A DNA stretch of 64,000 nucleotides from an uncultured Candidatus Saccharimonas sp. (GTDB lineage Bacteria; Patescibacteriota; Saccharimonadia; Saccharimonadales; AWTP1-31): positions 21,910-85,909 of the forward strand of contig CALRBE010000005.1 in NCBI GenBank assembly GCA_943354005.1. Reading direction: 5' to 3'. A model generated the notes under the pieces. It ran no database searches. It had not been told where the DNA came from and worked only from the letters and a program-made list of their open reading frames with translations. A program made the position numbers and the translations under genes. This document shows positions 7,917-57,520 of this stretch, in pieces (the first letter of the stretch is position 1; each line of letters starts with the position of its first letter).

Positions 7917-9014
7917 ATGAGCAAGCGCGACTATTATGACGTGCTGGGAGTCGGCAAGACTGCCAGTGACGATGAAATTAAAAAAGCCTTTAGAAAAAAA
8001 GCTATTGAGCACCACCCAGATAAAGCGGGTGGTGATGAGTCTAAGTTTAAGGAATTGAACGAGGCCTACGAAGTTCTAAAGGATGATCGTAAGCGACAAC
8101 GATACGATCAGTTTGGTCATGCAGGCGTCGGTAGTAGTGCAGCAAGTGATGGTGGTAATCCATACGCCGGATTCGGCGGTGGACAAAATGGTAATTTCGA
8201 TTTTGGCGATCTAGGATTAGGAGATATTTTTGGCAGTTTCTTCGGAGGCGGTCAGCAGCGCCAACAGCAGTCTCGTGGTCGCGATGTAGAAACTTCAGTC
8301 GACCTGACTTTTGAAGAAGGTATTTTTGGTAAGGAACAAAAGATAAAGATTGCTATTGATGACGTCTGTGAACATTGTAAGGGCACAACAGCTGAACCTG
8401 GACACGATCTCAAGACATGTGACACTTGTAAGGGCAGTGGCCAGGTTATGCGGGTAACTCGAACGGTATTTGGAGATATTCAGCAAGCAACAGTCTGTAA
8501 TTCATGTAAGGGTTCTGGAAAAATACCAGAGAAAGAATGTACTGTCTGTCATGGCAAAGGTACTGCCCGTAAGGATCAGACTATTAATCTGAAAATACCG
8601 GCTGGTATTGATGACGGTGCAACTATTCGTTTGAGAGAGCAGGGTGAGGCTATCGCACGAGGCTCTAAGGGAGATCTCTATGTACATATACGCGTTAAGC
8701 CGCATAAACACTTTACAAGGGAAGGCGACTTGATTCTAAGTGAAGTGAATGTCCCAATGGTAGACGCCGCTCTTGGCACCGAAATCGAAGTAGCAACTGT
8801 AGATGGCCCAATACGTATGAAGGTGCCAGCTGGAACCCAGAGCGGTACTGACTTTAAACTTTCAAGCCATGGTGTTCCTCACATGAGAGGAAGTGGTAGA
8901 GGAGCGCATATCGTAACAGTTACCGTGGTGACTCCAACAAAACTAAGTAAGCATCAGCAAGAATTACTAAAAGAATTTAAATCTAAATCAAACAAGCGAA
9001 GTTTTTTTAACTAA
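7917..9014 (+). CDS. dnaJ: molecular chaperone DnaJ
   Basis: J domain (HPD), a G/F-rich region and four CxxCxGxG zinc-finger repeats. Confidence 0.95.
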   Translation: MSKRDYYDVLGVGKTASDDEIKKAFRKKAIEHHPDKAGGDESKFKELNEAYEVLKDDRKRQRYDQFGHAGVGSSAASDGGNPYAGFGGGQNGNFDFGDLGLGDIFGSFFGGGQQRQQQSRGRDVETSVDLTFEEGIFGKEQKIKIAIDDVCEHCKGTTAEPGHDLKTCDTCKGSGQVMRVTRTVFGDIQQATVCNSCKGSGKIPEKECTVCHGKGTARKDQTINLKIPAGIDDGATIRLREQGEAIARGSKGDLYVHIRVKPHKHFTREGDLILSEVNVPMVDAALGTEIEVATVDGPIRMKVPAGTQSGTDFKLSSHGVPHMRGSGRGAHIVTVTVVTPTKLSKHQQELLKEFKSKSNKRSFFN

Positions 9015-11773: not shown

Positions 11774-13054
11774 ATGAAAGATATTAAAATAGCCAAACTA
11801 ATAGAAGCCGAAGAAAAGCGACAGCGCGAAGGCCTTGAACTTATCCCAAGCGAAAATTATGTTAGCAGAGACGTACTTACGGCGCTAGGCAGCGTTTACA
11901 CCAATAAGTACTCTGAAGGGTACCCAGGAAAGCGCTACTATGGAGGCCAAGAAAATACTGACATCGTAGAAGCACTAGCAATTGATAGAGCTAAGGAACT
12001 GTTCAATGGAGATCATGCAAATGTACAGCCGCACTCTGGTGCCCCTGCAAATATTGCGGTGTATCAGTCATGGCTCAATCTAGGAGATACAATTATGGCT
12101 ATGAGGCTTGATCATGGCGGTCATTTGACTCATGGTCACCCAGTTACTTCAGTATCAAAGGCTTATAACTTTGTGCGTTATGGAATGAAAGACGTTGAAA
12201 CAGGCGAGATTGACTATGATGAAATGCGGGCGATTGCACTTAAGGAAAAGCCTAAAATAATTATTGCAGGCTTCAGTGGATATACTCGCTCACTAAATTA
12301 CGATAAATTCGCTGCAATAGGTGAAGAATGCGGCGCACTTCTTATGGCCGATATGGCACATGTTGCGGGACTGATTGCAGGCAAGGCTTTACCGAATCCT
12401 TTGGATCACGGATTCCAGGTACTAACCAGTACGACGCATAAGACTTTGCGGGGACCACGCGGCGGACTCATAATCAGTAAAGGGATAGTAGGTAATTCCT
12501 TAAAAGCTCCTGAAAAGATAATTGAAAATCTACCGACTCTTATAGACCGGGAAGTATTCCCAGGATATCAGGGTGGGCCACACATGAATAATATAGCCGC
12601 TAAAGCAGTGGCATTCAGGGAGGCCTTACAGCCCGATTTTGGGGTCTATGCAAAGCAGGTGATATCTAATGCTCAGACACTAGCAAAAGCTCTTCAAGGC
12701 AAGGGATTTAAGCTAGTAACGAACGGTACTGACAACCACATGGTACTTATTGACATGCCTAAAAGTTTTAATGGAGTCAATGGTAGAGAAGCGCAAGAAA
12801 TTTTAGATATGATTGGTCTGAATGCGAACTGTAATGCAATTCCTGACGACCCACTTCCACCTTACCGTCCTAGTGGTCTACGTTTAGGCACGCCTGCAAT
12901 TACTACACGTGGGCTAAACGAGGAACACATGGGCTTAATAGCTGCTTGGATGCATGAAGCAATTACCAAGCGTAATGATCAAAATGCATTAGCCCAAATT
13001 AGAGCTGCTGTAACTGAATTTTCACTACAGTTCCCACTTCCTAGCGACCGTTAA
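11774..13054 (+). CDS. glyA: serine hydroxymethyltransferase
   Basis: 426 aa with the PLP-lysine motif TTHKTLRGPRGG. An SD (GGAGGA) lies upstream. Confidence 0.97.
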   Translation: MKDIKIAKLIEAEEKRQREGLELIPSENYVSRDVLTALGSVYTNKYSEGYPGKRYYGGQENTDIVEALAIDRAKELFNGDHANVQPHSGAPANIAVYQSWLNLGDTIMAMRLDHGGHLTHGHPVTSVSKAYNFVRYGMKDVETGEIDYDEMRAIALKEKPKIIIAGFSGYTRSLNYDKFAAIGEECGALLMADMAHVAGLIAGKALPNPLDHGFQVLTSTTHKTLRGPRGGLIISKGIVGNSLKAPEKIIENLPTLIDREVFPGYQGGPHMNNIAAKAVAFREALQPDFGVYAKQVISNAQTLAKALQGKGFKLVTNGTDNHMVLIDMPKSFNGVNGREAQEILDMIGLNANCNAIPDDPLPPYRPSGLRLGTPAITTRGLNEEHMGLIAAWMHEAITKRNDQNALAQIRAAVTEFSLQFPLPSDR

Positions 13055-21271: not shown

Positions 21272-21348
21272 GGGCCAGTAGCTCAGCTGGTTAGAGCACC
21301 TGCCTCTTAAGCAGGGTGTCGAGGGTTCGAGTCCCTCCTGGCCCTCCA
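21272..21348 (+). tRNA. tRNA-Lys(CTT)
   Basis: Cloverleaf by hand: acceptor GGGCCAG/CTGGCCC, anticodon loop CTCTTAA, T-loop TTCGAGT. CCA is encoded. Confidence 0.92.
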
Positions 21349-21393
21349 ATACGCTTATGTTAATTTAGTATATGGTTTCCTATAATTCAAATT

Positions 21394-21705
21394 ATGACAA
21401 AGAAAAAAGAAAATAAATCTGCAAGTATTAAAACAATTGATGTAATCGGATTTTTGACCGCATTAATATATATGCAGTCAGTGCTTACCGTAGCTCATCA
21501 CACAAGTATGTGGGTACACGATGGTTCAACTCACACAGTAGGACCACCGGCAATACCTGCGCTTGTTACTGGACTACTGATTGTTGCTTACTCTACTTAT
21601 AAGAATAAATTGTCATTCACGACATTGAATGTGATAACGCTTACTATTATTGCAACTGCAAGTTTATTCTGGCTTTCAGGATTACGAACTAACTTTTATT
21701 TCTAA
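21394..21705 (+). CDS. cassette 1: small 3-TM membrane protein
   Basis: 103-aa ORF. TATAAT (21381-21386) lies 7 nt before the ATG and there is no SD. Confidence 0.55.
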   Translation: MTKKKENKSASIKTIDVIGFLTALIYMQSVLTVAHHTSMWVHDGSTHTVGPPAIPALVTGLLIVAYSTYKNKLSFTTLNVITLTIIATASLFWLSGLRTNFYF

Positions 21706-21724: not shown

Positions 21725-21770
21725 ATAGTTGCAATAGCGTCTACTATGGCCCTCCATACCGCTTATGCAT
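21725..21770 (+). repeat. tRNA-Lys 3'-end-like junction repeat R1
   Basis: ATAGTTGCAATAGCGTCTACTATGGCCCTCCATACCGCTTATGCAT. GGCCCTCCA plus CGCTTATG matches the tRNA end and flank at 21340-21359. Confidence 0.8.
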
Positions 21771-37371: not shown

Positions 37372-37448
37372 TGGAGGGCCCAGTGAGACTCGAACTCACG
37401 ACACCCTGCTTAAAAGGCAGGTGCTCTAACCAGCTGAGCTATGGGCCC
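37372..37448 (-). tRNA. tRNA-Lys(TTT)
   Basis: The reverse complement folds as a cloverleaf: acceptor GGGCCCA/TGGGCCC, anticodon loop CTTTTAA. CCA is encoded. Confidence 0.92.
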
Positions 37449-50938: not shown

Positions 50939-51015
50939 CGGGGTGTGGCGCAGTTGGCTAGCGCGCGCGGTTTGGGACCGCGAGGTCGAAGGTTCGAGTC
51001 CTTTCACCCCGACCA
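50939..51015 (+). tRNA. tRNA-Pro(TGG)
   Basis: Acceptor CGGGGTG/CACCCCG, anticodon loop TTTGGGA. CCA is encoded. TATAAT lies at 50913-50918. Confidence 0.92.
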
Positions 51016-51060
51016 GAAGAAACTTTACTTAAATCCACCATTTATTCAAATGGTGGATTT
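51008..51060 (+). repeat. direct repeat copy A (tRNA-Pro 3' end, flank and terminator hairpin)
   Basis: CCCGACCAGAAGAAACTTTACTTAAATCCACCA-tttattcaaa-TGGTGGATTT. Confidence 0.85.
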
Positions 51061-51094
51061 AGTTTTTCTAGCTCTGTTAAATGCTGTCGTAATA

Positions 51095-51670
51095 TTATTG
51101 TTTCTGAGTTCTTTGTCTTGCAGTTAGAATAGTGGCACTCATAAGAATGTTTACTAGCATTATGTAGACTGGGTATGAAAGATTAGTCCAGCTATAGGAC
51201 TCAAAGGCGAACAATGCTATTAGTGCCCCGAAACCCGACCAAGCGAACGTGGTCCATGTTTCTTCAAAGGGTTTTTGCCAAGAATGCTTAAACGTTGGTA
51301 AAGCACCTATTAGATCTATGGTTAATGCTGCGTAAACTGCTATAAGAGGCGTGTTAAAAATTTGCCATAGAATGAGTCCAACCACTGCTGCAAGCTGGCA
51401 CATTACATCGAATTTAGTGTACTTAACATACCCATGCCTCAGCCCAAGTATTACGACTAATGCTGTCGCTATCCCTGCGGCACCAGTAAAGAAAGCGGCA
51501 CGATATTCGTTAGCTGAGATAAGAGCTGCCGTTGCTAGCCCAGTGAGCAATGTCCAAGTTAACCAAGACACGATGTTAGGCTTTGTTTTGCCCTTAAGAA
51601 TGTCACGAATATAAGGAATTACTGCACTAATAGTAATAACAGCCGATAACAAGAGTAGAATGTCTTTCAT
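51095..51670 (-). CDS. polytopic membrane protein, unknown function (sole gene between the tRNA-Pro repeats)
   Basis: 191 aa from the ATG at 51670, with TGcGATATT 6 nt upstream. The track ORF to 51859 starts at a TTG inside the repeat-B hairpin loop. Confidence 0.55.
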   Translation of the reverse strand: MKDILLLLSAVITISAVIPYIRDILKGKTKPNIVSWLTWTLLTGLATAALISANEYRAAFFTGAAGIATALVVILGLRHGYVKYTKFDVMCQLAAVVGLILWQIFNTPLIAVYAALTIDLIGALPTFKHSWQKPFEETWTTFAWSGFGALIALFAFESYSWTNLSYPVYIMLVNILMSATILTARQRTQKQ

Positions 51671-51822
51671 CTCTATAATATCGCACATATATACTAAGTT
51701 TTCAATCTGAACCATCATTGTTTTTGAACTACAAGCTTTTCTAAGATCATCTAGGATACTTTTAGCTTCGTCTGAGTATTCTACTAACAGATGGTTCAAT
51801 AGTTCGTATAGGGTATGTTCGA

Positions 51823-51875
51823 CCCGACCAGAAGAAACTTTACATAAATCCACCAGCAAATTGTATGGTGGATTT
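51823..51875 (+). repeat. direct repeat copy B (partial tRNA-Pro 3' end, flank and terminator hairpin)
   Basis: CCCGACCAGAAGAAACTTTACATAAATCCACCA-gcaaattgta-TGGTGGATTTTT. 42/53 identical to copy A, with the differences confined to the hairpin loop plus one other base. It is preceded by GTTCGA, which matches the T-loop. Confidence 0.85.
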
Positions 51876-51962
51876 TTATATACATAATCTTAATTACCAC
51901 TGTATATAAGAAATACAGCATTTATTGAATTTAAGCACTACAATTAACTGTATAATACAAGA

Positions 51963-53258
51963 GTGGTGAGAGCTATAAACAGGAAATATGTAGTCTTATG
52001 CGGTTTATTGGTCGCTGTTTTATTTTTTGTCTCTTACATTGATACGATGCAAAGATTTATTTTTGCTGATAGTGATGATGAGCCATACTCGATATTTATT
52101 ATTGCTGGTCAATCTAACGCTGAGGGAACTAACTCATTCAGAAGTCAGCTCCCAGCCGGTACAGGATTCGATAAGCAAGATCATCCTGCAGATGTGGACA
52201 CCAAATTTTGGTGGGCTGGAGCAGATGGAAAAGGACCAAGCAGCGCTGTCGATTGGCTGACTATTTTTAACGGTGAGAGTGTCGCTGGATGGATTGACTC
52301 TGGTTCGGGTGTAACGCTTAATAAGTTAAAAAATTTGAACAGTACTCAGCGCGGGGGACTTTTTGGTTCTGAACTGGGTGCCGGCCGAACGTTATACGAC
52401 AAGGGACGACGTAAAGTTATTATCCTTAAAGTTACCTACGGCTTTCAGTCTCTTGCACAATCTACGAGCCAGTTTATTCCATATGATTGGAACTCAGCCG
52501 ATGCACAAACAAGACAGAAGAGTTACTATAGATTGAAAACAGAGTATGATCAGCTTACTGAGCAGTTACGATCTCAAGGTAAGAAATACACCATTGACGG
52601 ATTCCTATGGATGCAGGGCGAAACCGACACACTACAAACTGAGTATGCAGCTGCTTACAAACAAAACTTACTTAGTCTGACACAGGCAATCCGCAATGAT
52701 TTCAAGCTACATCCCGCGGCGCATATTGTACTAGGAAAAATATCATTAAAGCAGTGCATCGAGGAGTCTTACCCTGTAACAGGCAACTACTGTGGCGCGC
52801 CGTGGGCTGGAAGTCTTGACCCTCTTGCTTTTTCAGTTACTGAATCTCAACAAGCAGTGTATGCTGACAGACATAGACAAGTACGAGATGCAATGCAATT
52901 TGTCGCCGATAACGACCAGGCATATAAGCAAAAGGTAGACGTCGTAGAAACAGGAGACTTAAAGCGAGGTTATGACAGTATACACTTAACCGAATCAAGC
53001 CAGCTTGAACTTGGCAAAAGGTTCGTCAACATGTATTCACTACCAAAGCGCTATAACTCAGACGATCCGATTCCTGGTAGAAATTTAGATTATGACCGAG
53101 ATGGTGTCCTAAACTCAGCAGAAGATACTGGCCGGGGCCAGGGTTGTCCATTGAGTTATAACGCGGTAAATAACGGAAATTTAGGTGACGATGATTCGGA
53201 CTGCGATGGCTTTCCTAACTACCTAGATAAGATTAATGGCATAGGTAGCGGACTATGA
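51963..53258 (+). CDS. secreted SGNH/SASA-like (sialate O-acetylesterase family) esterase with C-terminal TSP3-like calcium-binding repeats
   Basis: IIAGQSNAEG and WMQGETD motifs. The C-terminal DYDRDGVLNSAED and DDDSDCDGFPNYLD are Asp-rich repeats. The GTG start lies 6 nt after TATAAT. Confidence 0.65.
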   Translation: MVRAINRKYVVLCGLLVAVLFFVSYIDTMQRFIFADSDDEPYSIFIIAGQSNAEGTNSFRSQLPAGTGFDKQDHPADVDTKFWWAGADGKGPSSAVDWLTIFNGESVAGWIDSGSGVTLNKLKNLNSTQRGGLFGSELGAGRTLYDKGRRKVIILKVTYGFQSLAQSTSQFIPYDWNSADAQTRQKSYYRLKTEYDQLTEQLRSQGKKYTIDGFLWMQGETDTLQTEYAAAYKQNLLSLTQAIRNDFKLHPAAHIVLGKISLKQCIEESYPVTGNYCGAPWAGSLDPLAFSVTESQQAVYADRHRQVRDAMQFVADNDQAYKQKVDVVETGDLKRGYDSIHLTESSQLELGKRFVNMYSLPKRYNSDDPIPGRNLDYDRDGVLNSAEDTGRGQGCPLSYNAVNNGNLGDDDSDCDGFPNYLDKINGIGSGL

Positions 53259-56200
53259 AAATAAAAGATATAGTCCTTCGTCAATGCAACAAGCTCCGCA
53301 AGTCCATAAAACAAATAAATAATAAAAAAATGCGCATTGGACTAATCATTGCTGGAGGTTTTTTTATATTGTTGTCGGTAATTATCTATGCTGTTCAACA
53401 TAATAAAAAACCAGCAAAGATTAAGAATGACATTATTATTGTTTCTGATGCAAAGACGGAAACGAGTAACGTTAATGCGAGTCCCGGCGAAAAAGTCACG
53501 TGGCAAAAAAGCCTAAAATTAAATTATCCATCCGATGCAGTAGACGGAAGTATTATTGAAGAAATAGATGAGAACCAGGAGTTCAATGGTCAATTAAATT
53601 TGCCAAAAGGTTGGACAGCGGAGTATTCGATTGATTCTAGGTCTACGGCTGCCGATAGTCGCGTCTATAGCTCAACATTACCAAATGATCCAACTACCGT
53701 AACGTTTATTAAAATTAAGACTGGTACTACTGACGATTTAAACCCTGTCTCTCAAAAGGCTCTAATTCAGCCTCTTGATGAAAGACAATTAATAACCAAC
53801 GGCAATGTACCCTCATCCCCGATTATTTATAACGATAAGGTATTTATAATTTATAAAGCAGTGCGGGCAACTACCTCCTCTGTCTCTATGGACTGTTTTG
53901 ATTTAAAAACGTACGCAAGCTGTAGCGACGTCACATTTCCAACTTATTTATCCGCAGATGGAACTAATGAAGTGCCCACTGCTCTAGGTACTGGAACCAG
54001 GAACATCAGCACTCCTAAAGATCTACAGCACGTCTTAGACTCTGATACGGGTAAGTTGTACATACCAGGTCAAAGCGGCAATAACTATGGGGTTACTTGT
54101 ATTAACTTATCCTTATTTCAAAATTGTGGATTCACAATATTAGGTTCGAGCACTGCTCCTACGGGTTCTAATCCCGCTCTAATATCAGGCTTTGTTCAAT
54201 TGGGTACTAAACTGTATGGACACGCCAATGATGCCGATCGAACTTATCAAACGGTTGTTTGTTTTGATCTTGAGACCAATGCTTCATGTTCTGGTTACAG
54301 CGCGACGTCTAATGCTGCAACCCTAACATATAAATTGTCTGAACATGCAGGTTCGTATGAGACTACTGGAAAACACGTTGTGAGCGGCGATAAAATGTAC
54401 TGGCTTGTAAACTATCGAACTGGCAACACAAGTATCCCAGAATTTTTTGCCCCGACTGGGACTCAGCGTGATCAAGGTACTCGTCTAGCTTGCTATGACG
54501 TTGTATTAAATCAGGTATGCACAGGGTGGCCTCTTAATGGCGGTCCGGCTCGGTATTTTACTGGACTTGGTACTGAACGGCCGTATGGACTATTCACATG
54601 GAAAAATCCTGGGGGGACCGATAAGGGGATATGCTTGTCGGCAGGCCTCGCAGGTTTTTATTCAGCGTTCGATCCAGGCATCAGTTGTTTCGACCTTTCT
54701 ACAGGAGCAGCATTAAGCGATCCCAGCTCACCTACGCTGTTTCCATCGCAATGGCTATATTTTCCATGGACGATGTCTTCGGATATTACAAATATAACGA
54801 ATGAAGCGGACGGGCATCAACGATCTTACTTCGCTTTATATAAAACTGCTGACGGTGCACTTACATCGGCTCGCACAGGAGGTGCAACAATATGTTACGA
54901 CTGGGATAAGCCAGGATTATGTGATGATTTCCCAAAAATAAAATATTGGAACGAGATTAACGACGGTAATAGTGGTGACGTGGGATATGCTGCAGACGGT
55001 TCATGTATGTGGGGTATTGGGGCATCTGGATATGTGTGGACATACAATAAGACCACTGCTGAATCTCCTTGCAGAACAACGAAAACTACGCAAACCGTCA
55101 GTCTTAATGCAGACGATTTTTACTGTGACGGCAATACCCATTCGTTTAATTGGAAGCGCGCTAAGTTATCGAACGCCAGCATGTATGATTTCCAAAACTA
55201 CTACGTGACAGTTAAAAATAGCGCCGGCCAAATATTAATACAAAAACAGGACATAAAAGAACTAGGTTATCTTGATTTATCGTCGATACCGTATGTAGGA
55301 AATGAACAATTGATCATCGATGTTGAGTCAACGGTATACAATACTAGTCCTTGGGCAAATGGTAACCTTCCGTATGCGACAGTTGTAGCTGATGCGGATG
55401 AAGCTCAGTATTGTTACGAAACAAATACTAAAAGTTATTGTGATATTGCTGGCATAGCGTCATTATCTAGTGCAGTAGTAAATATTCCAGACGATAGTTT
55501 AATAGATAATACGATAACGGAAGTTGTAGTAGATCAACCTGCTCAAACCCAATGTTTTAAAGATGTAAAACTCTCAATCACCAAAGATCGAACAAGTATA
55601 ACTAGAGGGGATAACATAACGTATAGTCTTAATATACAGAATAAGGCAAATATTGATCCTGAGGGGAGGGGGAATATAACTGGTGCGACCGTTGAGGCCA
55701 CAATACCAAGTGGTTTGGCCTATGTCAGTTCGTCAGCTGGTGGTTCCGTTGAAGGAAGTAAGGTAGTTTGGAATAACCAGACTTTCGTGGCGGCTTCAAG
55801 CTATGAAAAAACAGTAACGTTTAAGGTCCCCGCCACAGGTCTTGTGCCGCAAGAAAAGCCCAAAAAAGGAGTGGTATATGCTGCTACTTCACAGCAGAAT
55901 ATAGCTTTTAATGCAAACATCATATTTGATGGTGATACGTATCAAGCGGACAATAGCTCAGGCGATACAGGTGTCGTTCTTTCTATTACAACCCCAGAAA
56001 CTACAGCCCCAACAACCCCAGAAACTACAGCCCCAACCACCCCAGAAACTCCAGAAACTACAGCCCCAACAACCCCAGAAACTCCAGAAACTCCAACCCC
56101 TCCTGAGACGACTGCAAACATAAGGACGGGACCAACTCCGTATACGCCGCTTGTATTACAACGGTTTATTCCTTCAGTCCTAGAAAAGCCGGTAGAATTT

Positions 56201-57520
56201 ATATTCAGGACATTTAATCTAGGTGCTTCTGCGGTTCCAGTAGCCATAGCAAAAGCATCACCGTTCTTGCTTATCAGCATCTTGATAATACTGGCAATCT
56301 TCTATGGCATACAGGCTCTCATACAAAAGAAAGTGCGTCTAGAGTTTGCGGCCTTAAAAGAGCGCTTTAAACAGACTGAAACTCAAAGAAAGAAATTCAT
56401 CGATCTATCCACTCACTACCTAAATACACCGATTGTTACTATGAAGTCTACTGTAGAACTATTAGGCTTTGATAACGCGATATCTAAAGAGACTAGCTCT
56501 GCGATAAGCACTAGACTCAATAAGCTTTCCCAGGATGTGAGTACTATACTCGAAAATTCTCAAAAAACTGAGGTTTCGAACGGGCTCCAGGCTCAGACTT
56601 TAGAGGACACAAGTTTACTCAAATTTAGTTCAAAGCGTGCGGTAATCGTACCTTTAGTAAGCGTTCTTTTACTCGCAATATTTGTGAATGTACTTTTTGT
56701 ATGGACTAAGAAGTTTACCATTAATCCAGCTGTTCTTTCGACGCAACTTATAGTGTATCTTGCTGGTGCGTTTGGCCTATTGCTAGCTTACAGGAATCTT
56801 TTCCAGCAAAGACTTGTCACCTCATACGCCAACCAAGAATTAAATCTTGAAAAAGAGGTGTTCAATGCTCAGACAAGTCTCATTCGTGAAGGTAGCGGTG
56901 TAATACAAGATGATATCCTAGAAATTGATCGCTATGCACAGCAAATTCAGGCAGTTCCAAGAGGAAAAACTTTCAGTAACGGGCTTTCATCAATTAAGTA
57001 TATTGTTTCAAAAATGGCCTTTTTGAGTGCTATCGAAACTCAAACCTCAGCCATTGCTTTGGATACAACACAGTTTGAACATATTGTTTCTGAGGCTGTT
57101 GAAAAGTATCGTGAATTTGCACAATCAAAACAAATTCGATTCTCAACTATGATACAGCCAGATATCACTGCCCAAATTGATGAAGTGAGCTTAAGACATG
57201 TTCTATCTTCATTGATGGATAACGCAATTAAATTTTCAAAAGCCGGAGACAGTATTGATGTTGCAGTAAAAGGCGATAAGAAAGAAACACATATTACCGT
57301 ATCTGATACAGGTGAAGGTATTGAGGCTCAAGCTAAAGAAAAGATATTTGCACCTTTTTCAAGGGCTACAGACACCCAGCAATTAAATTATGAAGGTCTA
57401 GGCCTTAGTCTTTATACAGATAAGATAATCACAGATAAATATAATGGATCGATTACATTATCAGAAAATCCTGGCGGAGGCACTATAGTCAAAGTTGCTC
57501 TGCCTTCCAAAATAGAATAA
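53255..57520 (+). CDS. giant membrane sensor histidine kinase with ~950-aa extracytoplasmic region
   Basis: N-terminal TM helix, Cys-motif repeats, a DUF11-like repeat domain, a PT-rich linker, TM helices, an H-box-like STHYLNTPI, and an HATPase_c domain (DNAIKFS, DTGEGI, GLGLSL). ATGA overlap with the upstream gene. Confidence 0.8.
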   Translation: MKIKDIVLRQCNKLRKSIKQINNKKMRIGLIIAGGFFILLSVIIYAVQHNKKPAKIKNDIIIVSDAKTETSNVNASPGEKVTWQKSLKLNYPSDAVDGSIIEEIDENQEFNGQLNLPKGWTAEYSIDSRSTAADSRVYSSTLPNDPTTVTFIKIKTGTTDDLNPVSQKALIQPLDERQLITNGNVPSSPIIYNDKVFIIYKAVRATTSSVSMDCFDLKTYASCSDVTFPTYLSADGTNEVPTALGTGTRNISTPKDLQHVLDSDTGKLYIPGQSGNNYGVTCINLSLFQNCGFTILGSSTAPTGSNPALISGFVQLGTKLYGHANDADRTYQTVVCFDLETNASCSGYSATSNAATLTYKLSEHAGSYETTGKHVVSGDKMYWLVNYRTGNTSIPEFFAPTGTQRDQGTRLACYDVVLNQVCTGWPLNGGPARYFTGLGTERPYGLFTWKNPGGTDKGICLSAGLAGFYSAFDPGISCFDLSTGAALSDPSSPTLFPSQWLYFPWTMSSDITNITNEADGHQRSYFALYKTADGALTSARTGGATICYDWDKPGLCDDFPKIKYWNEINDGNSGDVGYAADGSCMWGIGASGYVWTYNKTTAESPCRTTKTTQTVSLNADDFYCDGNTHSFNWKRAKLSNASMYDFQNYYVTVKNSAGQILIQKQDIKELGYLDLSSIPYVGNEQLIIDVESTVYNTSPWANGNLPYATVVADADEAQYCYETNTKSYCDIAGIASLSSAVVNIPDDSLIDNTITEVVVDQPAQTQCFKDVKLSITKDRTSITRGDNITYSLNIQNKANIDPEGRGNITGATVEATIPSGLAYVSSSAGGSVEGSKVVWNNQTFVAASSYEKTVTFKVPATGLVPQEKPKKGVVYAATSQQNIAFNANIIFDGDTYQADNSSGDTGVVLSITTPETTAPTTPETTAPTTPETPETTAPTTPETPETPTPPETTANIRTGPTPYTPLVLQRFIPSVLEKPVEFIFRTFNLGASAVPVAIAKASPFLLISILIILAIFYGIQALIQKKVRLEFAALKERFKQTETQRKKFIDLSTHYLNTPIVTMKSTVELLGFDNAISKETSSAISTRLNKLSQDVSTILENSQKTEVSNGLQAQTLEDTSLLKFSSKRAVIVPLVSVLLLAIFVNVLFVWTKKFTINPAVLSTQLIVYLAGAFGLLLAYRNLFQQRLVTSYANQELNLEKEVFNAQTSLIREGSGVIQDDILEIDRYAQQIQAVPRGKTFSNGLSSIKYIVSKMAFLSAIETQTSAIALDTTQFEHIVSEAVEKYREFAQSKQIRFSTMIQPDITAQIDEVSLRHVLSSLMDNAIKFSKAGDSIDVAVKGDKKETHITVSDTGEGIEAQAKEKIFAPFSRATDTQQLNYEGLGLSLYTDKIITDKYNGSITLSENPGGGTIVKVALPSKIE
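55988..56113 (+). repeat. tandem coding repeat (TTPETTAP/TPE units)
   Basis: ACCCCAGAAACTACAGCCCCAACA-type 24-nt units with 9-nt CCAGAAACT sub-repeats, encoding a Pro/Thr/Glu linker. Confidence 0.85.

Follow-up and report, generated by a model that had tools for sequence, protein, structure and literature searches.

A probable eroded integration site of large serine recombinase elements at the tRNA-Pro(TGG) gene of a Saccharibacteria genome

Introduction

How does a single membrane-protein gene come to lie between two copies of a tRNA 3′ end when no recombinase is encoded near it? This question is raised by positions 50939-51875 of a 64,000-nucleotide (nt) stretch of DNA from an uncultured Candidatus Saccharimonas sp. 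(contig CALRBE010000005.1), hereafter the window, by which we mean the whole stretch at its full length. Here the end of a tRNA-Pro(TGG) gene, together with the sequence that follows it, is found again downstream, beyond one gene on the opposite strand. The original prediction made for this locus explained the arrangement as the attL/attR footprint of a small cassette integrated into the tRNA 3′ end and mobilised in trans. Comparison with related genomes leads to a different answer: with a probability of about 70%, the locus is the eroded integration site of elements encoding a large serine recombinase (LSR), which insert at the 3′ end of tRNA-Pro(TGG) in Saccharibacteria.

The repeat at the tRNA-Pro 3′ end

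A repeat search returned a direct repeat of 58 nt at 51003-51060 and 51818-51875, with a spacing of 815 nt. The duplication first proposed is 53 nt long, comprises the last 8 nt of tRNA-Pro and a 45-nt flank, and lies at 51008-51060 (copy A) and 51823-51875 (copy B), 815 nt apart; it was recovered as described, although the two 53-mers match at 45 of 53 positions rather than at 42. Seven of the eight mismatches fall in the loop of a hairpin and one in the flank, in line with the claim that all but one difference is located in the loop, and the stem AAATCCACCA/TGGTGGATTT is indeed preserved in both copies. The exact 21-mer CCCGACCAGAAGAAACTTTAC is present at 51008 and 51823 only, with zero matches in 100 shuffles. 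The fold energy of the hairpin in copy A (hairpin A) is -19.5 kcal/mol (z -6.2) and that of the hairpin in copy B (hairpin B) is -13.8 kcal/mol (z -4.2); in a terminator scan hairpin A, which is followed by TTTTT, passes and hairpin B does not.

The arrangement is 100% identical in contig ERZ27280309, and GCA_965017735.1, whose contig begins at window position 51502 and contains the copy B side only, is 99.8% identical, which makes a one-off misassembly unlikely. Two further claims were borne out: the copies enclose exactly one gene (51095-51670, minus strand, 191 amino acids (aa)), and no recombinase is encoded between them or, as judged by tblastn, in the whole 64 kb. Rfam searches of the window and four related loci matched tRNAs alone, and gave no RNA family for the hairpins or for a 150-nt element of relatives that is described below.

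A recombinase gene family behind the flank and hairpin

The 80 best relatives of the window's RNase Y gene are, without exception, from Saccharibacteria or Patescibacteria metagenome-assembled genomes, in keeping with an origin of the window in the Saccharibacteria (TM7), and L-numbers label related loci. When the 3′ flanks of tRNA-Pro were compared across all related loci, the flank of 14-16 nt followed by the AAATCCACCA..TGGTGGATTT hairpin was also found in L001, L002, L023, L037, L040, and L080. A diverged version is present in L025, and the remaining loci have unrelated tRNA-Pro flanks; the L023 hairpin shows one covarying stem pair. In L001 and L037, the flank and hairpin lie within opposite-strand open reading frames (ORFs) of 613-625 aa which converge on tRNA-Pro and end inside it. 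Domain matches, obtained on the relatives L001, L025, L037, and L040 and the homologues P0001 and P0017 rather than on the window, are to Pfam Resolvase (PF00239) and Recombinase (PF07508) and, weakly, to a zinc-ribbon domain (PF13408), along with phrog_95, annotated as "integrase" (E 2e-40). These ORFs of ~615 aa are LSRs. The two hairpin arms encode NPP and (L)VDL, parts of the motif KLNPPYxLLVDL that is conserved at the C-terminus, and the hairpin is chiefly coding sequence (NPPY..LVDL) conserved across the recombinase family. The repeated unit was originally taken for a tRNA end plus terminator, a description that needs to be replaced: only 6-8 nt of it are tRNA, and the rest is the 3′ coding end of the LSR gene, which forms the P′ arm of attP.

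Recombinase homologues numbered 392, and C-termini were inspected in 120 of them. Most of these end in ...STGR|GERTRTFDLxVPNRAR, where the residues after GR are the antisense of the acceptor and T arm of tRNA-Pro; homologues with this ending are genes read in the integrated state. In six (P0015, P0017, P0021, P0063, P0103, and P0111), ...GR is followed by some other tail, 42-53 aa in length. The 3′ end of tRNA-Pro is overlapped by a full-length recombinase gene in 7 of the 80 species loci (L001, L024, L025, L037, L040, L042, and L062), and short recombinase relics are present at tRNA-Pro in L002, L023, and the window. A small helix-turn-helix protein is encoded beside the recombinase gene and a terminase small subunit gene was found in one relative; at least some members of the element family are phage-like. 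A scan of viral contigs with P0017 returned no relatives.

Attachment sites in relatives

Natural attP sites in L081 and L082 consist of a P arm, the hexamer CGACCA, and the flank with its hairpin, and they align with copy B and its left flank. As judged from these alignments, attP appears to sit within the 3′ end of the recombinase gene itself, so that integration would exchange the C-terminus of the protein. Searches with the tail sequences identified attR junctions, in which a P arm is joined through CGACCA to a naive tRNA flank or terminator, in L001, L040, L042, L062, L065, and L082; the attR of L040 has the naive flank, with tRNA-Pro(CGG) 20 nt further. When the junctions of relatives were compared, attB, attP, attL, and attR had no sequence in common across the family except CGACCA, and therefore the crossover must lie within it. 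The arms assort accordingly: attL combines tRNA and recombinase 3′ end, attR combines tail relic and naive terminator, and attP combines P and P′.

The spacing of a second motif is also informative. RGTTCRN stands 17 nt from CGACC in 10 of 10 P arms, including that of the window, and 12 nt from it in four tRNA-Pro genes. In the sites of serine integrases, the motif of the zinc-ribbon domain is placed 5 bp nearer to the centre in attB than in attP (PMC3783163), and the two offsets observed here match this published shift. In the right half-sites (P′ and B′), a symmetric recognition motif was sought and no convincing counterpart was found. Taken as a whole, the assignment of the individual pieces and the layout of the att sites are very probably correct.

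Reading of the two copies

The features of the window that enter this reading are as follows.

50939-51015, plus strand: tRNA-Pro(TGG), from ARAGORN and Rfam (RF00005, 65.5 bits), with its 3′ end forming the left half of the attachment site (B arm of attB)
50991-50997, within tRNA-Pro: T-loop motif GGTTCGA, 12 nt before the core
51010-51015, no strand: core CGACCA of the putative attL, from comparison of attB, attL, attR, and attP in relatives
51016-51066, minus strand: P′A, putative relic of the last ~17 codons of the attL-form LSR gene, comprising the 14-nt flank, hairpin A (51029-51062), and AGTTTT
51095-51670, minus strand: ORF for a 191-aa polytopic membrane protein, the sole surviving gene between the copies
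51677-51705, minus strand: promoter-like site TTGAAA-17-(TG)GATATT, from a sigma-70-like consensus scan only, inside the tail relic
51688-51822, minus strand: P arm, putative relic of the 46-codon attP-form tail (VEHTLYELLNHLLVEYSDEAKSILDDLRKACSSKTMMVQIENLVY), from tblastn, nucleotide identity, and tail ORFs
51801-51807: P-arm motif AGTTCGT, 17 nt before the core
51823-51830, no strand: second copy of the tRNA 3′ end (CCCGACCA), with the core CGACCA at 51825-51830
51831-51882, minus strand: P′B, putative second relic of a recombinase 3′ end, comprising the flank, hairpin B (51845-51875), and TTTATAT, and truncated after ~19 codons

On the minus strand, copy A encodes LEKLNPPFE*MVDLSKVSSGR and then passes through GERTRTFDLAVPNRAR into the tRNA; it shows 74% identity to P0001 aa 584-618 (tblastn, E 2e-12). 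Copy A thus appears to be an attL whose minus strand encodes the integrated-form C-terminus (...VSSGRGERTRT). Its loop is a derived state, since strain L083 keeps NPPYNLLVDL. The change, which is recent, makes a perfect 14-bp stem and introduces an in-frame stop codon.

Copy B differs in what stands on its left. Its minus strand reads YVYKNPPYNLLVDLCKVSSGR|VEHTL... and continues into VEHTLYELLNHLLVEYSDEAKSILDDLRKACSSKTMMVQIENLVY without a stop or frameshift, so P′B is in frame with the P arm, and 51688-51882 as a whole corresponds to the 3′ end of a recombinase gene in its attP form. The P arm and copy B together match the attP-form P0017 (aa 586-634) with 55% identity over 51 aa (tblastn, E 1e-5), and the P arm shows 76-85% nucleotide identity to those of L022 and L100. 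For the tail, the ratio of nonsynonymous to synonymous substitution (dN/dS) is 0.05-0.14 over 32 codons in the window, L099, and L100, indicating that the tail is real coding sequence. The loop of copy B, GCAAATTGTA, is identical to the loop of the L082 attP. On these comparisons, copy B and the 135 nt on its left seem to be an attP-type junction (P-core-P′).

The attL/attR footprint originally proposed is therefore retained in part. Site-specific integration into the tRNA-Pro 3′ end stands, but copy B is not an attR, because with 51688-51822 it forms P-core-P′ and aligns with the unintegrated form of the recombinase genes. The GTTCGA before copy B had been regarded as a match to the T-loop, as though part of a tRNA 3′ half with a ~10-nt deletion had been kept; it represents two codons of the tail, for V and E (minus strand GTC GAA), and the region is conserved as GTATGTTCGA in 12 other genomes without an adjoining tRNA body. 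Another assignment, in which 51787-51822 were recombinase codons SNLRAGNDSIPVI just inside P′, was dropped, the homology to the P arm (tail) being backed by 12 other genomes and by tblastn. Downstream of copy B, neither an attR nor a second P arm was found within the window. The stop codon of the tail has been lost, and a 254-aa ORF at 51095-51859 (minus strand) is an artefact in which the tail relic is fused in frame to the 191-aa gene. This ORF is called as a gene in public assemblies (L095 and L097), and P0121 (217 aa) is a similar over-extension.

A proposed history of tandem integration and erosion

A scheme that would produce this structure starts from a full-length element, in which the P′ arm would be the last ~20 recombinase codons, including the inverted repeat encoding NPPY..LVDL, and the P arm a further 46-codon tail. 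Crossover in CGACCA would fuse the recombinase gene to antisense tRNA, creating attL and a new C-terminus, ...GRGERTRT..., and would leave the tail at the far end of the element as attR. Two elements in tandem, either as a double lysogen or by "accretion", would give attL followed by an internal attP-type junction. Deletions would then have stripped the recombinase body and the remainder of both elements, reducing the left element to P′A, one gene, and the P arm, and the right element to ~19 codons of P′B. The survivors would be two short recombinase-gene ends, the tail, and the membrane-protein gene with a promoter in the tail relic. Hairpin A would now act as a terminator between the convergent tRNA-Pro and membrane-protein genes, P′A probably serving both of them as a bidirectional terminator. 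This order of events, tandem integration and then deletions, is slightly favoured by the comparisons below.

A tandem array of the kind required is found in L082, where a P arm with a P0015-type tail, the core, and a P′ arm with the full recombinase gene and cargo are bounded on the right by a second P arm with a P0017-type tail, the core, and a naive terminator. Copies A and B are nearer to each other than to any other P′ arm. L083, a contig from ERR12084956, is 97% identical to window 51009-51777, and its copy beside the gene retains the loop of copy B; copies A and B were therefore nearly identical originally, which fits two copies of one element type (e.g., dimer integration). To the right of window position 51777, L083 has a gene for a 212-aa HExxH protein, a partial copy of the tRNA-Pro 3′ end (AAATCCTTTAAACAGGCCCCGACCA), and a 207-aa gene with a homologue downstream of tRNA-Pro in L002, whereas the window has at this position the end of the P arm, copy B, and a SASA-family gene. 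The locus is thus polymorphic within the species. Decay to recombinase-less elements flanked by att sites, termed cis-mobilizable elements (CIMEs), and tandem accretion form an established pathway for other integrases (PMC5704250). Both flanks of the present interval are pieces of recombinase pseudogenes, which points to the decay of full-length elements.

Several observations weigh against this reading. No intact element with a window-type P arm was found: all 13 instances of this arm (the window, L022, L099, L100, and nine metagenome loci) are in loci without a recombinase hit, the 10 true P-arm loci of the metagenome scan gave none, and a search of 5.8 billion proteins for an intact recombinase with the window-type tail yielded three small ORFs only. 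Five islands with both ends visible, of 0.8-3 kb, are all without a recombinase. In 10 of the 13 instances the ORF of the 46-codon tail has stayed intact, which is not easily attributed to plain decay and leaves room for non-autonomous elements. In addition, tandem arrays of different elements would need non-canonical recombination of attP with attL or attR, homologous recombination, or dimer integration. The reading as a whole comes from sequence comparison. Finally, the closest homologues of the 191-aa gene are convergent to tRNA-Pro in two lineages without att relics, and if this gene is a resident, its placement between the P′ and P arms would need an extra rearrangement.

Alternative explanations

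The explanation that survives best besides tandem integration is that a circle of ~0.8 kb, carrying attP (P-core-P′A) and the membrane-protein gene, was integrated in trans at a tRNA-Pro already carrying an old P′ relic (copy B), as in L002, and may still be mobilisable. The window structure is the exact outcome of integration of such a circle by recombination between attP and the tRNA core. L002, the closest species by RNase Y, has tRNA-Pro with a single relic that shares the truncation point of copy B (GGATTTTTATAT). This P-arm lineage occurs only in recombinase-less islands of 0.8-3 kb with varying cargo (the window, L022, L102, L112, and L120), 10 of 13 instances retain a complete tail ORF, L065 has a one-gene interval of ~0.75 kb between tRNA-Pro and the P arm, and the CIME concept exists for other integrases (PMC5704250). 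Even so, we regard this explanation as unlikely. The target would have been attL-type and the present flanks are attL and attP-type, a pairing that serine integrases normally do not recombine (PMC3783163). P′A and P′B are both truncated recombinase coding sequence, implying descent from full-length elements, and the 64-kb window is without a recombinase.

A mobile circle should leave an empty-site junction (tRNA body and P′B) and a circle junction (P arm and P′A). Neither junction, nor a second copy of the unit, is present in four same-species contigs, three of which (L095, L096, and L097) are identical and one of which (L098) ends inside the tRNA. The exact 21-mer gave no hit at all in metagenome contigs of the Joint Genome Institute (JGI), and hence no empty site or circle junction. 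An empty-like state, with tRNA-Pro, a single hairpin, and downstream genes, does exist in L002, as the first interpretation predicted, but none was found in the contigs of this species. The trans-mobilised 0.8-kb mini-cassette of that interpretation is accordingly not evidenced, with no empty site or circle junction of this species and with a non-canonical combination of attL and attP-type flanks. In terms of the CIME definition, the interval has an att site on each side (an attL at 51008-51066, an att junction at 51688-51882) and its recombination genes are deleted; a CIME has attL and attR flanks, and the right-hand site here is attP-type (P-core-P′), not P-core-B′.

A more general form of this idea is offered tentatively. 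The P-arm lineage with the tail GRVEHTLHELLNHLLEYSDEAKSILDDLRNACNP..ENLVY may be the signature of a family of islands, 0.8-3 kb long and non-autonomous, that consist of an attP half-site or full attP and changing cargo and are moved in trans by the serine recombinases of full-length elements at tRNA-Pro. Exchange of the 46-aa tail for the tRNA-antisense tail could conceivably switch the activity or directionality of the recombinase.

Local duplication of the tRNA-Pro 3′ flank across a resident gene, by unequal crossing-over, slippage, or gene conversion, is very improbable. The membrane-protein gene does neighbour tRNA-Pro in lineages without att relics, and the recent remodelling of the copy A loop indicates that the hairpins change by local events. 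Tandem copying, however, would double the whole 815-bp unit rather than 53 nt. The reading frame of copy B runs on into a 46-codon tail that is found at attR or attP of 12 other genomes, something that copying of the tRNA flank could not produce, and the motif stands at the 17-nt distance that is characteristic of a P arm.

No more credible is a remnant of tRNA-Pro(CGG) at copy B, with the body deleted and a homologous terminator kept. About 25 of the 80 related loci do carry that gene 0.1-5 kb downstream of tRNA-Pro(TGG), and the tRNAs of L021 share a 54-nt 3′ flank including a hairpin, but what precedes CCCGACCA on its left does not resemble a tRNA and encodes a recombinase tail, and the flank and hairpin are recombinase coding sequence instead of a tRNA terminator. 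A classical tyrosine-integrase island that lost its integrase is equally improbable: tyrosine integrases do usually target tRNA 3′ ends, and partial tRNA-Pro 3′ copies of 17-25 nt occur downstream of tRNA-Pro in relatives, but only 6-8 nt of tRNA are repeated here (usually 15-60 nt), the adjacent recombinases in relatives are serine-type, and no tyrosine integrase lies beside the sites in any locus examined.

The membrane-protein gene between the copies

The gene between the copies encodes a member of a Saccharibacteria-wide family of ~190-aa membrane proteins, with 234 homologues at 55-82% identity. The 191-aa protein matched nothing in Pfam or PHROGs, and an exact-sequence look-up found no record of it as such; it is present only as the 217-aa call P0121. 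Its AlphaFold2 model has a mean confidence score (pLDDT) of 93.1, and in the PDB it comes closest to cystinosin and the KDEL receptor, two proteins of PQ-loop fold, with template modeling (TM) scores of 0.51-0.64 and weak E values of 0.02-0.7. An invariant P19-Y20 stands at the place where PQ would be. The predicted fold resembles that of the PQ-loop, cystinosin, and KDEL-receptor proteins, so that the protein is probably a small transporter. The leaderless-type promoter originally assigned to the gene corresponds, in a consensus scan only, to a predicted sigma-70-like site; its -10 element ends 6 nt before the ATG, and the transcript may be leaderless.

The gene begins 18 nt past the end of the tail relic, and in other copies of the window P arm (L099, L100, L120, L112, and L102) different genes follow the tail, which places it in the position of element cargo. 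Among the homologues convergent to tRNA-Pro, that of L084-L089 lies immediately after the naive terminator of tRNA-Pro, and that of L090 lies ~1 kb from tRNA-Pro with an ornithine carbamoyltransferase (OTCase) gene between them. More distant homologues are found elsewhere in ordinary chromosomal contexts, and the neighbours on the 5′ side of the gene differ among the window, L083, L084, and L090. The gene, which had been taken for an insert, is thus not clearly an import, given its close homologues beside tRNA-Pro in two lineages free of att relics, and could be either element cargo or a long-standing resident of a hot spot.

The wider locus and other tRNA-linked structures

The interval from tRNA-Pro to a conserved block of the 207-aa gene, an ATPase gene, and tRNA-His is variable between genomes, and is a gene-flux hot spot in the small genomes of Saccharibacteria. 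Directly after copy B, window 51963-57520 contains a gene for a SASA-family carbohydrate esterase (431 aa) and then one for a protein of 1421 aa, in which a DUF11/CLIPPER repeat is combined with a histidine-kinase ATPase domain at the C-terminus. Neither has a homologue at the corresponding position after tRNA-Pro in the 80 related loci, and the two genes, lying in the variable interval, may be cargo of the eroded right-hand element. In the complete chromosome OZ246417.1 (L065:11587-12420), tRNA-Pro is followed by a terminator, a 159-aa gene of unknown function, a P0017-type P arm, and CGACCA, within ~750 nt and without a recombinase.

At attR junctions of the window-type P arm, the core pentamer is repeated in tandem. 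L022:10694-10732 reads GTTCGA CCCGA CCCGA CCTGA CCTGA CCCAA CCCGA CCA; three to four copies are present in L099:8578-8600 and L100:~2620-2645, two in several metagenome loci (among L110, L112, L114, and L120), and one in the window. This amplification may be due to slippage or to repeated misaligned recombination at the crossover site.

Many relatives, among them L040 (15170-15266), L036, L071, and L072, have tRNA-Pro(CGG) downstream of tRNA-Pro(TGG), at distances between a few and a few thousand nt, and no tRNA-Pro(CGG) is present in the 64-kb window. A serine-integrase element in L040 is placed exactly between tRNA-Pro(TGG) and tRNA-Pro(CGG), which are otherwise adjacent (12 nt apart in L036).

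The window contains a second tRNA-linked repeat, the other case cited in the original prediction. The last 10 nt of tRNA-Lys(CTT) (21272-21348) and an 11-nt flank (TGGCCCTCCAATACGCTTATG, 21339-21359) recur at 21747-21767 with 86% identity. Between the copies there is one membrane ORF, of 103 aa (21394-21705), and after them comes the hairpin AAACAGAGG..CCTCTGTTT, to which the 3′ flank of tRNA-Lys(TTT) at 37372 also shows a match. No serine-recombinase relic was detected at the tRNA-Lys(CTT) site by tblastn.

Right after tRNA-Pro(TGG) and its terminator, at least 12 species, but not the window, carry a structured element of ~130-180 nt. Its occurrences are the following.

L016:12492-12672
L052:11944-12118
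L022:9640-9825
L072:11133-11308
L049, L005, L015, L029, L050, L056, L060, L063, L046, and L020
L082, on the B′ side of attR
L112, at both ends of an island, 8815-8973 and 11849-12010

The element starts with TTGGT and contains a long hairpin whose 3′ strand copies the variable loop and T-stem of the tRNA-Pro of the same genome (GGTCGAAGGTTCG). A hairpin of 50-60 nt (GCGCAGG-loop-CCGAGC) takes the place of the T-loop, and after it come exact copies of the 3′ strands of the T-stem and acceptor of that tRNA-Pro and CCA, with a second terminator at the end. RNAalifold analysis of seven sequences gave 23 pairs, 12 of them with compensatory changes, and no Rfam match was obtained for the element. 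In L112, the core, terminator, and structured element are repeated at both ends of a recombinase-less island. Candidate identities for the structured element are an undescribed tRNA-like RNA, a second attB acting as a decoy, and a miniature integrated element.

Comparison with known systems

Prophages and integrative elements of the LSR type (phiC31, Bxb1, A118/LI, and SPbeta type) share with the present family the Resolvase and Recombinase domains, with a zinc-ribbon, and a short attB/attP core with element-specific arms and a motif 5 bp further out in attP, together with the small helix-turn-helix gene beside the recombinase gene and, in one relative, the terminase small subunit gene. The characterised serine integrases mostly target protein-coding genes. 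The Saccharibacteria family differs in targeting a tRNA 3′ end, which is restored on integration, and in having attP inside the recombinase ORF, so that the C-terminal 46 aa are exchanged; in the window the recombinase is gone. Tandem double lysogens such as lambda dilysogens have the order attL-prophage-attP-prophage-attR. The window resembles them in the complete internal attP downstream of attL, but its copies amount to tens or hundreds of bases and no attR is present.

An attP inside an element's own gene, with integration replacing the 3′ end of that gene, occurs in the intP/intX system of Mx8 and in the integration-dependent immunity of mycobacteriophages. Those systems involve tyrosine integrases or repressor genes, whereas the Saccharibacteria family uses a serine recombinase. 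CIMEs and tandem accretion, as in ICESt1/ICESt3 (PMC5704250), are similar to the window in that the interval is flanked by att sites, the integration genes are deleted, and tandem remains lie at a tRNA 3′ end. The described CIMEs have a tyrosine integrase and attL/attR flanks, whereas the case here involves a serine-type family, has an attP-type right site, and is known from sequence only. A literature search returned no paper describing a tRNA-restoring serine integrase with attP embedded in its ORF and a swapped tail in Saccharibacteria.

Conclusions

The structure is real and specific and is of a known kind, most likely an eroded serine-integrase footprint at a tRNA gene with tandem accretion. 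It is moderately new at the level of the family, in which a serine integrase restores the tRNA 3′ end, attP lies in the integrase ORF, and a conserved tail is swapped. What appeared to be a recombinase-free cassette is on this reading the scar of serine-integrase elements, which removes a false lead, and the 254-aa gene call at this place is a fusion of a recombinase-tail relic with a membrane-protein gene. More broadly, tRNA-Pro(TGG) emerges as a recurrent landing site of serine integrases across Saccharibacteria, and the defined attB/attP pair, with its core CGACCA and with attP in the integrase gene, could be tested as a tool for genetics in a phylum that resists manipulation.

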